Source of the DNA: Firmicutes bacterium HGW-Firmicutes-11
GTDB lineage: Bacteria; Bacillota; Clostridia; Peptostreptococcales; Anaerovoracaceae
Length of the DNA: 64,000 nt
Direction: 5' to 3'
Assembly (NCBI GenBank): GCA_002840285.1
Contig: PHAE01000004.1
Location: 7,706-71,705 of the forward strand
Position numbers and translations under genes: made by a program. Every line of letters starts with the position of its first letter. Within the stretch, counting starts at the first letter, position 1. This document shows positions 23,264 to 27,253 of this stretch, piece by piece. The notes under the pieces were generated by a model, which worked only from the letters and a program-made list of their open reading frames with translations, made no database searches and had not been told where the DNA came from.

Positions 23264-23289
23264 CTCATTTGACAGGAAAGGACATGCGT

Positions 23290-24831
23290 ATGAACCACCA
23301 AAAAGTGATCGTCGCCGATTTCGGCGGACAGTATAACCAGTTGATCGCAAGAAGAGTCCGGGAAGAGAACGTCTATTGTGAGATCGTGTCCTATTCCCGA
23401 TTGATGGAGTCGATCCAGACAGAACGGCCAATGGGCGTGATCCTGACCGGCGGCCCCAACAGCGTTTATCTCGAAGGAGCGCCGTTGTTGCCGGCAGAGT
23501 TCTTCCGGATGGGGATCCCGGTCCTTGGCATTTGTTACGGTGCCCAGCTGATGGCCCACGTCCTTGGCGGCAGCGTCGCAAGCCCGGATAATAAAGAATA
23601 TGGTAGGGTGAAGATCAGCACCGAAGACAGCGAGCTGTATCACGGTATCGGAAGCGACGAGGTCTGCTGGATGAGCCACACCGACTATATCGAGCGTGTA
23701 CCGGAAGGGTTTCGTGTATCGGCGATCACCGAAAACTGTCCCACCGCCTCGATGGAAGACCCGGCGGCAAAGCTCTATGCAGTGCAGTTTCATCCGGAAG
23801 TCCATCACACTCCCTTCGGACAGACGTTGCTCCGCAACTTTCTAACCCGTGTCTGTGGTTGCGTCGGCGACTGGACCATGGACACCTTTGCCCGGGACAA
23901 GATACAGGAAGTCAAAGAAACCGTTGGAGACAAAAAGGTGATCTGCGGTCTTTCCGGCGGAGTGGATTCTTCCGTCGCCTCCGTATTGGTCCACGAAGCC
24001 ATCGGCGACAACCTGGTCTGCATTTTCGTTGACCACGGCCTGCTGCGCAAGGACGAAGGCGATCAAGTCGAAGAGGTTTTCGGTAACCAATTCCAGATGC
24101 GCCTGATCCGAGTCAACGCCAAAGACCGTTTCCTGTCCAAGCTTTCCGGAGTGACCGATCCGGAGAAGAAGCGGAAAATCATCGGAGAAGAATTCATTCG
24201 CGTCTTCGAAGAAGAAGCAGCGAAACTGTACCAATCTCTGGGAGATATCGCATATCTCCTGCAGGGAACCATATATCCTGACGTGGTCGAAAGCGGCGTC
24301 GGAGAATCGGCGATGATCAAGAGCCATCACAACGTGGGTGGCCTGCCGGACGATGTCGACTTCACCTTGCTCGAGCCTCTGCGCCTCCTGTTCAAAGACG
24401 AGGTCCGCAAAGTCGGCGAAGAGCTGGGGATCGCCAGCGAGCTAGTCTGGCGTCAGCCATTTCCCGGCCCCGGACTCGCTGTTCGCTGTTTAGGAGAGAT
24501 CACAGAAGAAAAGCTTGAGATCCTCCGGGAGTCGGATTTCATCTTGAGGGATGAAATCAAAAAAGCCGGCTTAGAGCGAGAGATCTGGCAGTACTTCACC
24601 GTGCTCCCCAATGTCAAAAGCGTCGGCGTCATGGGCGATTACCGTACCTACGACCACACCGTCGGCATCCGCGCTGTCACCTCCGTCGATGGCATGACCG
24701 GCGACTGGGCCCGGATCCCCTTTGAAGTCCTTGAAAAAATAAGTAATCGAATCGTCAACGAAGTCAAAGGCGTAAATCGCATCGTATATGACATCACAAG
24801 TAAGCCACCCAGTACGATTGAGTGGGAGTAA
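23290..24831 (+). CDS. guaA: GMP synthase (glutamine-hydrolysing)
   Basis: GATase domain ([16 protein letters not shown]), ATP-PPase SGGVDSS motif, and conserved C-terminus ...[11 protein letters not shown] 23290 has the best RBS spacing (AGGAAAGGA); the track start is 23269. Confidence 0.95.
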
Positions 24832-25180
24832 TACCCAATTCGGCAAGCCCGAAGGGAGCCGCCGAATTGTTGGTATTACCCCCGTCAGGGTTGGCGAGAC
24901 TTTTATGAGCGAAGTGATATAAAAGTCCGCAACCTACGGCGCAACAGAACCCAATTCGGCAAGCCCGAAGGGAGCCGCCGAATTGTTGGTATTACCCCCG
25001 TCAGGGTTAGCGAGACTTTTAAGCGAAGCGAAAAAAGTCCGCAACCTACGGCGCAACAGAACCCAATTCAGCAATCCCGAAGGGAGCCGCCGAATTGTTG
25101 GTATTACCCCCGTCAGGGTTGGCGAGACTTTTAAGCGAAGCGAAAAAAGTCCGCAACCTACGGCGCAACAGGACCCAATT
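24832..25180 (+). repeat. tandem array of three complete 112-116 bp units plus the first 7 nt of a fourth
   Basis: The word CCCAATT recurs at 24834, 24950, 25062 and 25174 (periods 116, 112, 112). Units are near-identical and each contains several hairpins. The array begins 1 nt after the guaA stop. Confidence 0.9.
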
Positions 25181-25212
25181 TAAAATCTTTTTATAGACAG
25201 GGTACAACGATA

Positions 25213-25532
25213 GTTGTCTCATTGCTTAGCAGTCACCCCCATTGAGACAACAATCCACGGGAACTTGATTGATTTTGGTCCGAGACTCCGCACCTTATGC
25301 CCATCAGCAGTTCTGGCGAAAGTTTAGTTGTCTTTTGGCGGACGGGAAAATAAAATTGAGACAACAAATTCAGTTCAACGGCAGAATGATGTTGTCTTAA
25401 ATCCCTCAAGTCGATGAGAAAAGACAACTAAGCCCGAAAAATGAACCAAAGGAAGTCAGTCATGTGACAAACACCCCTATTTTGAGCAAGAAAGTTGTCT
25501 CTAAGGATCTTAAGACCAAATTGAAAGACAAC
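25213..25532. repeat. cluster of four inverted repeats GTTGTCT-N24/25-AGACAAC
   Basis: GTTGTCT at 25213, 25327, 25391, 25494. AGACAAC at 25245, 25359, 25422, 25526. Orientation strictly alternates, with arm-to-arm offsets of 32, 32, 31 and 32 bp. Confidence 0.8.
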
Positions 25533-25573
25533 TAAGCCGGGCAGAACCTATAGGGCGGATAGCATTAAACATA

Positions 25574-25608
25574 GGGACGGTCTCTTTTTAAGAATCGAGA
25601 ACCGTCCG
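25574..25608. other. hairpin GGACGGTCTC-N12-GAGAACCGTCC (related to the 27198-27253 hairpin)
   Basis: Imperfect 10/11-bp stem followed by GTTTC. Shares the GGGACGGT(T)CTC / GAGAACCGTCC word with the hairpin at 27198-27253. Confidence 0.4.
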
Positions 25609-25628
25609 TTTCATTCAATTGCACATTA

Positions 25629-25669
25629 GAATTTGTAGGTATTACCCCGCCAGGGTTAGCGATAGCTTT
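25629..25669 (+). repeat. degenerate partial copy of the guaA-proximal repeat unit (distal part of the interrupted fourth unit)
   Basis: GAATTTGTAGGTATTACCCCGCCAGGGTTAGCGATAGCTTT aligns to the unit segment GAATTGTTGGTATTACCCCCGTCAGGGTTAGCGAGACTTTT with a few mismatches or indels. Confidence 0.6.
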
Positions 25670-25769
25670 GATGATAAATGATGCTGCTGCAATAGGTGAT
25701 TCCATTGAATGCCAATGACGACGGAGGTATTCGACTCACAAAGGTCTCAAGAAACACACGAGGTGCAAA

Positions 25770-26696
25770 ATGAAACGAAGCGATGAACGAGACATCATGT
25801 TTTCGCGAATGGCAAGAAAGCCAAACACGAAAGAATATGACCAGTATTATTCCCTTCATCCAGAGCTCCTTGAAATTGATGATACACTGCGAGCACAAAT
25901 GCCGATCGGGAAGCCTGGCGACCGCTTTTATGATTCGCTAAAGACCTCTACGGTGGATGCAGCCTTTCAGTTTCTGGATAGCATCAAACCTCTTGTCGAA
26001 GGTCCAACGGCTTCAAAGATTCTCACCACTGGGACTGCGGAAGATTTCACTGCCCACATTAAAAGCATTGCCGAATTGTATGGTGCCAGTGTGACCGGAG
26101 TAGCAAAGAGCGACGAATCCTTTTACTATTCACATCGAGGTCGTACCGATCAGGTATATGGAGATTCTGTCAGCATAGATAATTGGCCCCATACCATCGT
26201 GTTTGCTGTCCCGATGAATGAAGCTATGATCCGAAAGGCTCCAAAAGCAGAAGAGAGTATAGCTGTGACCCAAGGGTATGTTCAGGCTGCTATCGTTGGG
26301 ATGATACTCACATACACAATAAAGGCGTTTGGCTATGAAGCCAGAAACCACATGGATGGGAATTACCTTTGTACTTTGCCACTCGCTGCAAAAGCAGCTG
26401 GTATAGGGGATATTGGGCAGCATGGCCTGATCATAACAGAGGCGCATGGTCCAAGAGTGAGACTTGGCGCGGTATCTACAAATCTACCCCTGGTAAACGA
26501 TCCACCATTTTCAAAGTCAATTGCGCCGATTTGCGAGACATGCCGAAGATGTGTCAGAAACTGTCCATCAAAAGCTATTCCTAATGACATTTTGGCAACG
26601 ATCACACAGGAAAAGTGCTTTGAAAAGTGGTTGGAATACGGAACCGATTGCGGTATTTGTCTTTCGGTGTGCCCGGGATTTGACGAAGGGAAGTGA
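25770..26696 (+). CDS. reductive dehalogenase / epoxyqueuosine reductase (QueG)-family Fe-S protein, cytoplasmic type
   Basis: 308 aa. C-terminal CETCRRCVRNCP and CGICLSVCP ferredoxin-type motifs after an RdhA/QueG-like core. No Tat signal. GC content is visibly lower than in the flanking genes. Confidence 0.65.
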   Translation: MKRSDERDIMFSRMARKPNTKEYDQYYSLHPELLEIDDTLRAQMPIGKPGDRFYDSLKTSTVDAAFQFLDSIKPLVEGPTASKILTTGTAEDFTAHIKSIAELYGASVTGVAKSDESFYYSHRGRTDQVYGDSVSIDNWPHTIVFAVPMNEAMIRKAPKAEESIAVTQGYVQAAIVGMILTYTIKAFGYEARNHMDGNYLCTLPLAAKAAGIGDIGQHGLIITEAHGPRVRLGAVSTNLPLVNDPPFSKSIAPICETCRRCVRNCPSKAIPNDILATITQEKCFEKWLEYGTDCGICLSVCPGFDEGK

Positions 26697-26700
26697 AGTG

Positions 26701-27192
26701 ATGAACAAAGATATTTCAAAATGTATCGAAGTTTATAAAGACCAACTTGAACTAGGCGATATACAAGTAGCATACTCAGCATTAATGAAGTATATGGCAG
26801 AATTAAAGACGAAATTTCCACAGCAGTATTTGACAGGTCATATTTCCTTTGGATCTTTGGATTTTACATATTTTTCTTTTTACAATCAATACTTAAGAAA
26901 TCACAAACTCCGATTTGGAATCATACTAAATCATAAAAAAATGCAGATTGAGCTGTGGTTGATGGGACAAAATGCTTCGATCCAAAAAACGTATTGGGAG
27001 ATTTTGAAAAACACAGATTGGAATAAAAATCGAAAAGCGATGCCAAAATACTCAGTGTTGGAGATTTGCTTAGTAGATGAATTAGATTTTGAGCACAAGG
27101 ACAAAATGACAGCAACAATACTTGGAAAAGCAAATTCCTTAGCAATTCAAATCGAAAAATTTCTTGTAGAGCAAGGATCGAACAAGGGATAA
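26701..27192 (+). CDS. hypothetical protein (163 aa), AT-rich gene
   Basis: ATG 26701 lies 4 nt after the preceding stop; the 26521 track start would overlap the upstream gene by 176 nt. Coherent Lys/Asn-rich composition, no motif recognised. Confidence 0.6.
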   Translation: MNKDISKCIEVYKDQLELGDIQVAYSALMKYMAELKTKFPQQYLTGHISFGSLDFTYFSFYNQYLRNHKLRFGIILNHKKMQIELWLMGQNASIQKTYWEILKNTDWNKNRKAMPKYSVLEICLVDELDFEHKDKMTATILGKANSLAIQIEKFLVEQGSNKG

Positions 27193-27197
27193 ACAGA

Positions 27198-27253
27198 GCA
27201 GAACGAAGGGACGGTTCTCTGTTGTAAAACAGAGAACCGTCCCTTCGTTCTGC
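27198..27253. terminator. 24-bp perfect-stem hairpin between convergent genes (probable bidirectional terminator)
   Basis: GCAGAACGAAGGGACGGTTCTCTG-TTGTAAAA-CAGAGAACCGTCCCTTCGTTCTGC. No strong U-tract on either side. Confidence 0.6.

Follow-up and report, generated by a model that had tools for sequence, protein, structure and literature searches.

The window analyzed here, a stretch of 64,000 nucleotides from a genome placed in the Anaerovoracaceae by its GuaA matches, carries behind the guaA gene a tandem array of hairpin-forming repeats, the fourth unit of which is interrupted inside its first hairpin by a segment of 448 bp. The question is what this segment is and how it came to lie in a repeat unit. 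The earlier note, made from the letters alone, offered two readings, that is, a non-autonomous element of the IS200/IS605 type inserted into the hairpin loop, or one large multi-domain RNA in which the hairpin is expanded. Neither is favored by the comparisons described below. The segment is probably a resident, non-coding promoter module studded with operators, together with a REP hairpin, and lies beside an unstable array; it is probably not a recent mobile element.

The guaA flank and the interrupted unit

The left border of the variable region is fixed, being the 3' end of guaA with its stop at 24831, and the first features to the right of this border and beyond the segment are as follows.

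23269-24831, plus strand: guaA, GMP synthase (Pfam GATase and GMP_synt_C)
24833-25180, no strand assigned: tandem array, 3.1 units of 112-116 nt (Tandem Repeats Finder)
25629-25661, no strand assigned: unit fragment with the H1 right arm, the linker and the H2 left arm (local alignment versus shuffles)
25662-25750, plus strand: remnant of the 3' end of a PHD-like antitoxin gene and of its 72-aa partner ORF (alignment to the intact genes of L055 and L058)
25770-26696, plus strand: Fe-S protein gene, RdhA/QueG-like, 308 aa (weak Fer4 Pfam hits)

For 24833-25180 Tandem Repeats Finder gives a period of 112 nt, 3.1 copies, 95% matches and a score of 625, and the units start with CCCAATT at 24834, 24950, 25062 and 25174. 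Each unit is made of two long hairpins, H1 and H2. The arms of H1, CAATTCGGC and GCCGAATTG, are 16 nt apart in intact units, and in H2 GTCAGGGTTRGCGAGACTTTT pairs with AAAAGTCCGCAACCTACGG; the unit folds have z-scores of -3 to -4.6, about equal on both strands. As in a variable-number tandem repeat, copy number varies between close strains: there are 3.1 units in the window and 2.1 in the near-identical strain L027, the rest of the region being the same. The array ends with ACCCAATT at 25173-25180, and since ACCCAATT borders it on both sides, recombination or slippage between units fits; the array would grow and shrink by unequal recombination or by such slippage. It is best read as an independent, hypervariable tandem repeat of two-hairpin units.

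The earlier note described CCCAATT at 25174-25180, followed by divergence and an interruption of 448 bp, and all of its coordinates were confirmed. The sequence to the right of the interruption is really related to the unit: 25629-25669 aligns at 36 of 41 positions with small gaps and a local alignment score of 48, as compared with a mean of 13.8 and a maximum of 24 among 500 shuffles, none of which was as good, and a search of the whole genome gives this similarity an E value of 1.8e-4. The fragment is shorter than was claimed, however, because the bases from 25662 onward (AGCTTTGATG) belong to the toxin-antitoxin remnant, so that only 25629-25661 is true unit sequence. In the window this fragment is 88% identical to the units, and the unit-likeness of its counterpart in the relative L058 is not significant (p about 0.08). 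The toxin-antitoxin remnant itself has suffered two internal deletions, and the Fe-S protein gene is the first intact gene downstream of the segment.

The claim that the break coincides precisely with a structural element holds in part. The interruption does abut the left arm of H1, but the split is not clean, in that H1 has lost about 21-23 nt from its interior (CGGCAAGCCCGAAGGGAGCCGCC). The "split fourth unit" is best understood as an old junction at which the segment's repeated module, described below, abuts a unit truncated in H1; the right-hand unit fragment may have been fused later, by deletion, to the toxin-antitoxin remnant.

Composition of the 448-bp segment

The 448-bp segment is a composite of a four-box module of about 345 bp and a hairpin of the REP family. 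Its parts, with one related element further downstream, are listed here.

25181-25204, no strand assigned: leader at the left of the segment (window and L058 agree at 13 of 24 positions)
25205-25556, plus strand: conserved core of the four-box module (paralogs in C13, C69 and C16; orthologs in L058, L059 and L061)
25213-25251, minus strand: box A, GTTGTCT-N25-AGACAAC, with its conserved extension leftward (both arms 10/10 in L058 and L061)
25327-25365, minus strand: box B, enclosing a sigma-70-like promoter that reads rightward
25391-25434, plus strand: box C with a TAAGCC extension, 25 nt after box B, the same gap as inside a box
25494-25538, plus strand: box D with a TAAGCC extension, the best conserved part of the module
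25576-25608, no strand assigned: REP-derived hairpin, GGGACGGTCTC-N11-GAGAACCGTCC followed by GTTTC (REP core matches elsewhere)
27198-27253, no strand assigned: perfect REP doublet with 26-bp arms (GCAGAACGAAGGGACGGTTCTCTGTT and its complement), after the DUF7000 gene

The four GTTGTCT/AGACAAC inverted repeats noticed earlier were found at 25213-25251, 25327-25365, 25391-25428 and 25494-25532, two of the boxes pointing leftward and the next two rightward. They belong to a family whose consensus is 5'-GTTGTCT-N24/25-AAAGACAAC-YAAGSS, a directional box of 45 nt, in which the right arm AAAAGACAAC, followed by YAAGSS, is far better conserved than the left arm. The pattern GTTGTCT-N24/25-AGACAAC has 17 exact copies in the genome, and a reversed control pattern has none. 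When up to two mismatches are allowed, about 30 copies are found, all intergenic, always with a spacing of 24 or 25 nt, and spread over at least 11 intergenic loci of this Anaerovoracaceae genome. The boxes occur either as divergent pairs (C12 upstream of codY, C30, two in C34, C51, C67 and the end of C16), set about 155 nt apart on either side of an AT-rich and partly palindromic center, or as quadruplets in the order left, left, right, right (the window, C13 and C16:83-380), with three boxes in C69. In all four quadruplet loci and in their orthologs the gap between the two inner boxes is 24-25 nt; as this equals the gap within a box, successive half-sites, four in all, are spaced at 31-32 bp. 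The outer (YAAGSS) flanks usually consist of short repeats, tandem or degenerate, that lead up to a terminator, and several contigs break there.

No second full copy of the 448-bp segment exists in its own assembly (1.93 Mb, 75 contigs), and no match to it was obtained in plasmid and phage collections. The search for further copies that the earlier note had proposed did find paralogous segments elsewhere in the genome, but partial ones only: the best are C13:8992-9190 (about 200 nt, 73% identity) and C69:125609-125762 (about 165 nt, 70% identity). The module paralogs as a whole extend over C13:8955-9300, C69:125527-125800 and C16:75-400, have the same layout as the module in the window and have no array beside them. 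The ends of this homology are not those of the 448-bp segment. In the three-locus alignment paralogy is confined to about 25205-25550, so that the first 24 nt and the last ~80 nt lie outside the repeated module; the left leader, 25181-25204, is poorly conserved and absent from the paralogs, in which homology begins only at about 25205.

The GGGACGGTCTC hairpin of the segment was likewise confirmed at 25576-25608, and when the 448 bp were searched against the genome, many short matches to this hairpin were obtained. The same core occurs in C6, C55, C29 and at 27198-27253 of the window. The REP core GGGGACGGTTCTC has 86 extragenic copies with up to two mismatches, full REPs numbering 26, and so shows the many extragenic palindromic copies that define REP/REPIN families. 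The hairpin in the segment has the inverted core only, without the GTAGAACA arms and the 5' GTAG, and is REP-derived rather than a full REP. It is present in L058 and absent in L061.

The earlier note also asked for Y1-type transposase genes whose end hairpins match. Two Y1-type proteins are encoded in the genome, but only the right-hand hairpin of the segment can be linked to one of them, a REP-associated tyrosine transposase (RAYT). Its gene, C29:10070-10815 on the minus strand, is single-copy, matches PF01797 and scores 80.2 bits (cut-off 80) with NF047646, the NCBIfam model for REP-associated tyrosine transposases. Inverted doublets of the full REP GTAGAACATGGGGACGGTTCTCTGTTCTA, which starts with GTAG, lie on its two sides, and a RAYT gene between inverted REP doublets is the classical RAYT arrangement (PMC3116915). 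The resemblance to the REP/REPIN and RAYT systems (Bertels & Rainey, PMC3116915; PMC3337134) thus includes both the flanked RAYT and the extragenic core shared by 25576-25608 and 27198-27253. Unlike those systems, only the right end of the segment is in the family, and the boxes differ in sequence and flank no transposase gene. REP/RAYT is the sole real link of the segment to IS200/IS605-like biology.

The subterminal hairpins described earlier lie 32 nt from the left end and 20 nt from the right end of the segment. Their dissimilarity, which the earlier note itself had counted against a mobile element, is genuine: the left one belongs to the box family and the right one to the REP family, and the two are unrelated.

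Alleles, constraint and the question of mobility

The 90% GuaA cluster has ten members, which fall into three lineages about 9-10% apart in guaA DNA. Lineage W consists of the window and L027 (99.8% identical). Lineage Y consists of L058/L059 and L061, with a guaA nucleotide identity of ~90% to the window. Lineage X consists of L055, L056, L057 and L062, plus L060 at 98.9%.

L058/L059 have after guaA one H2 only, the same junction as the window, four boxes, the REP hairpin and an intact toxin-antitoxin pair; the common junction reads CCCAATTCA/AAATCT (…CGCATGAGAAACCCAATTCA/AAATCTC…). L061 has half an H2 and four boxes, after the last of which (box D) the Fe-S protein gene starts at once, and is without both the REP hairpin and the unit fragment. 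In L055-L057 the array has at least four units, the H2 is conserved and H1 is another palindrome (CAATACAACGGCTCCCTG and CAGGGAGCCGTTGTATTG) with complementary arms. L055 is a relative without the segment, such as the earlier note had suggested looking for: it has no box within 8.5 kb and possesses the array without the module, but its junction is not a clean intact unit. L060 has no array and a plain terminator directly after guaA. From these alleles it follows that module and array occur together, separately, or are both missing. The nearest other genera (GuaA ~83% identical) have different sequence after guaA: a PNPOx gene is present there in one and a tyrosine integrase in the other.

W and Y, which are lineages at the level of species, are both in the filled state at the same junction, and since the CCCAATT/module junction is common to both lineages, it predates their split. 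The absence of the module in X may be either a loss in X or a gain in W/Y. In the window, unit 1 carries an H2 loop of the lineage X type, and units 2-3 carry an H2 loop of the L058 type; as both types are present, the ancestor already had at least two units. After that ancestor, copy number and the H1 palindrome were altered separately in each lineage.

These alleles bear directly on the second of the earlier readings, one large structured RNA covering 24832-25669 with an expanded hairpin 1 in the last unit. The units and the module do fold strongly, and all elements share a single intergenic region behind guaA. Yet the number of units varies between near-identical strains, the module stands beside only about half a unit in L058 and L061, the array stands without the module in L055, and the module paralogs are without any array. 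Moreover, the fold strength is equal on both strands, no Rfam match was obtained, and covariation is absent. Array and module vary independently, and a single large RNA can be given almost no weight.

The module is also constrained. Between W and Y its identity is 84%, as compared with 67-70% at four-fold sites of guaA and the Fe-S gene. The box arms are identical at 88 of 92 positions (96%), the spacers at 75-81% and the loop of box A at 63%; the region of box D is almost invariant, with a left arm of 10/10, a loop of 17/19 and a right arm plus extension of 16/16 in L058 or 15/16 in L061. The segment and its boxes are under purifying selection.

Outside the genus the boxes are hardly found. 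In 60 other genera of the family the pattern does not occur, and in 185,579 species genomes there were only 12 isolated matches in unrelated taxa; a literature search for the box arms gave only unrelated shRNA and primer matches. When JGI metagenomes were scanned, one more species (contigs Ga0209231) came to light, whose box loci are orthologs of those in C12, C34b, C69 and C41. Their flanking genes are 85-91% identical, and the boxes and part of the center are conserved; the repeat-rich outer flanks cannot be aligned. The box loci are thus old; they have been inherited vertically and kept by selection, unlike active or decaying mobile DNA.

An IS200/IS605-like non-autonomous element, the first of the earlier readings, does not survive these comparisons, with its two hairpins unrelated and only the right-hand one linked to a Y1 transposase, no near-identical copy, a junction shared between lineages, purifying selection, and in L061 a module that stands without the REP hairpin or the right flank. 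The segment resembles the IS200/IS605 derivatives known as PATEs in having no terminal inverted repeats, in its subterminal hairpins and in a site inside a palindrome; it differs from them in its unrelated hairpins, the absence of identical copies and, among the lineages compared, of a clean empty site, its constraint across species, and the lack of a cognate TnpA with ends that match the segment.

A weaker form of the same idea is that the module is a relic of a non-autonomous mobile element, MITE/REPIN-like or mobilized by a hairpin-targeting HUH enzyme, which inserted into H1 before W and Y diverged and from then on was immobile or became domesticated. The boxes are a multi-copy family restricted to one genus, their doubles have terminal inverted repeats (CCCTTGGTTGTCTTTT and AAAAGACAACCAAGGG) and fairly sharp ends of homology, the module is flanked by the H1 left arm and, in the window, by the H1 right arm, it is missing in lineage X, and the genome encodes two Y1-type proteins. 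A relic is nevertheless quite unlikely: the 448-bp segment has no target-site duplication at its ends, and H1 lacks 21-23 nt; near-identical copies do not exist; the box loci occupy orthologous positions in different species, with the boxes under purifying selection; and the REPs that flank the RAYT gene are of a different sequence. Furthermore, the end hairpins of IS200/IS605 lie on the same strand, as in IS608, whereas the two boxes of a double point in opposite ways. An ancient insertion or capture, as distinct from a recent one, is possible, since the module abuts the H1 arm, has unit-like sequence on its far side, is lacking in L055 and has paralogs in the genome. The reading preferred here is still that of a resident module beside an unstable array.

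Boxes as DNA operators or RNA stems

If the module is resident and maintained, its boxes may act as DNA or as RNA. Among 30 oriented box copies there is no covariation in the stem, and pairing at variable positions equals the expectation for shuffled partners: at stem position 8, 20 pairs were observed versus 16.9 expected, and the other positions are equal to expectation. At position 7, seven of the 30 copies are unpaired and none is compensated, and the two arms are unequally conserved. RNAalifold, applied to six modules, re-paired only identical arms, with a covariation term of +0.17, and Rfam gave nothing near the gathering score for window positions 24000-27000 and 11 box loci. The lack of covariation and the phasing of 31-32 bp favor sequence-specific binding of a protein to DNA. 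On the other hand, the smaller hairpin between boxes A and B and that following box C keep their pairing through changed sequences in the paralogs, which hints at a role at the level of RNA or single-stranded DNA.

Box B encloses a promoter-like site with a -35 of TTGTCT (25328-25333), a spacer of 17 nt and a -10 of TAAAAT (25351-25356). TTGTCW-N16/17-TAAAAT is retained in L058, L061, C69 and L073, and the equivalent in C13 is TTGTCA-16-TAAAAT. Conserved half-sites are thus arranged with helical phasing around a promoter-like site, as in an operator array. The boxes would be operators for a putative sequence-specific DNA-binding protein, which, when bound to box B, would cover both the -35 and +1, and which may control rightward transcription of a short RNA or a 5' leader. 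The predicted transcript would pass through boxes C and D and end at the REP hairpin and GTTTC, a possible terminator; in L061 it would continue into the Fe-S protein gene.

Among multi-operator promoters with phased sites, NrdR boxes lie ~31-32 bp apart, and LacI, GalR and DeoR are looping repressors. The module is similar in that its half-sites are palindromic, conserved in sequence and about three helical turns apart, with a box operator over -35/+1 and auxiliary sites ~100 bp on each side. It is different in that its boxes are directional with a 6-nt extension, the binder is putative only, box pairs stand beside unrelated genes at 11 or more loci, and the outer repeats are hypervariable.

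Several known sites and binders were compared with the boxes. The arm AAAGACAACY fits WWRRACAR-Y, the SpoIIID consensus, but the spoIIID gene is absent from the genome. The attC, sigma-54 and ECF-promoter readings do not fit, as judged by eye against consensus sequences. An invertible promoter or a recombinase site is unlikely; one large serine recombinase and four tyrosine recombinases are encoded, all of them away from the box loci, and the spacer of 24/25 nt is unlike known core sites. Since the window contains no tRNA or tmRNA, the locus is not an ssrA-type integration site.

The alternative at the level of RNA is that the boxes are 5' stem-loops of a small RNA or leader and that the box loci form a multi-copy sRNA family, each member made of the box hairpin, a repeated body rich in purines and a terminator that is conserved; the segment would then hold one or two such genes. 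In the doubles, one box type has a conserved loop, GAGTCAAAAYCGGTCTCGAAAAGACAAC, and is followed by RAAGSC-rich repeats, the motif AAUAAGGAAACGAAAGGGC and a strong terminator (C34a, C67, C12, C16b and L075), and in C13, C69 and L073 a terminator hairpin comes after box C. Changes on both sides of the hairpin after box C leave its pairing intact, and a promoter-like site lies just upstream, in box B. Multi-copy sRNA families are known in the Firmicutes, such as LhrC1-5 in Listeria and the csRNAs in Streptococcus, and the box loci are like these in having several paralogous short units, a shared upstream motif, a 5' stem-loop and a Rho-independent terminator. They are unlike them in that the box motif lacks stem covariation, the bodies are fast-evolving tandem repeats and expression is only predicted. 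The uncompensated mismatches at position 7, the gap of 24-25 nt between boxes B and C, which equals the loop length and fits the phasing of DNA better than the folding of RNA, the terminators, which are bidirectional and in some cases serve convergent genes, and the lack of an Rfam match also speak against such a family, and it is considered doubtful.

A broader proposal, put forward only tentatively, is that the directional 45-nt box is an undescribed system specific to this genus, in which one putative protein binds phased boxes at about a dozen loci. Such a system would co-regulate small RNAs with repeated bodies or would locally promote the hypervariable tandem repeats on the outer sides of the boxes, including the 112-nt array. 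The box loci adjoin genes for central metabolism and regulators, namely codY, ilvD, aconitase, PFOR, etfBA and guaA.

What looked from one sequence like a transposon insertion is, on the preferred reading, a conserved regulatory module beside an unstable repeat, and annotators of metagenome-assembled genomes could err in the same way. The 3' flank of guaA is a hotspot of repeat turnover and of gene gain and loss in this genus, and a REP/RAYT system is documented in a Clostridia genome. Moreover, a box family specific to its lineage is defined in an uncultured genus of the Anaerovoracaceae, and its candidate regulon of about 11 loci lends itself to testing; should the boxes prove to be sites for a new regulator or marks of a new sRNA family, they would provide a ready handle on gene control in this group.

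The 3' flank of guaA

The region immediately 3' of guaA, which was compared in L042:5545-6525 (a relative whose GuaA is 83% identical), L055, L058 and L060, is a hotspot. One relative carries a tyrosine integrase gene immediately 3' of guaA, and in others the cargo at this place varies: it is a gene of the Lactamase_B type, a fragment resembling rdhA, a toxin-antitoxin pair or a two-component pair (HisKA_3/GerE). The window holds the following remnant here:
25662-25750, derived from the gene of a PHD-like antitoxin together with the 72-aa ORF that partners it, and carrying two internal deletions

The same pair is undamaged in the relatives L055 and L058, and in the window its remnant has been joined by deletion to the fragment of the repeat unit. 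When the tandem units of the window (24833-25180) were compared with those of lineage X (L055:5048-5500, L056 and L057), hairpin 2 proved to be conserved and hairpin 1 hypervariable from lineage to lineage, both arms of the latter varying in concert so that the palindrome is retained. Hairpin 1 is wholly absent in the relatives L058 and L061.

The REP/RAYT system

The genome (assembly G000), a member of the Clostridia (Anaerovoracaceae), contains a complete REP/RAYT system, with 86 copies of the REP core across the genome:
C29:9990-11020 (outside the window), the single RAYT gene of the genome and its flanking REPs
25576-25608 and 27198-27253 (window), REP copies

Inverted doublets of a 29-nt REP, starting with GTAG, lie on both sides of the RAYT gene. 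A second Y1-type protein, encoded at C64:431-1250, falls short of the RAYT model's cut-off of 80 with a score of 68 bits and has a CD3324-like HTH tail at its C-terminus; flanking REPs are absent around its gene. This protein may be a domesticated transposase.

Repeats near boxes and box-led units

At C41:42083-42480, a degenerate box is adjoined by a repeat, roughly 270-400 nt in length, that is dispersed in the genome; similar stretches occur in C47, C9, C60, C33, C42, C67 and C40, the copies being 74-80% identical to one another. Contig L073, from a metagenome, carries a full quadruplet of boxes at the position orthologous to the C41 site. In addition, because the same 23-nt tandem repeat, GCGCCGGCGGGGGCGTCAACAGT, is present at the end of C30 (C30:74222-74320) and the start of C69 (C69:1-76), these contigs probably join across a box-flanking array of more than seven units.

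Paralogous box units are located at:
C34:52568-52710
C67:124534-124715
C12:5897-6014, minus strand
C16:16625-16783, minus strand
L075:2319-2470

They are composed of a conserved-loop box, short tandem repeats rich in RAAGSC, AAUAAGGAAACGAAAGGGC and a terminator that is strong and bidirectional, and their bodies are strongly divergent across species. These units have the appearance of a family of small-RNA genes present in multiple copies.
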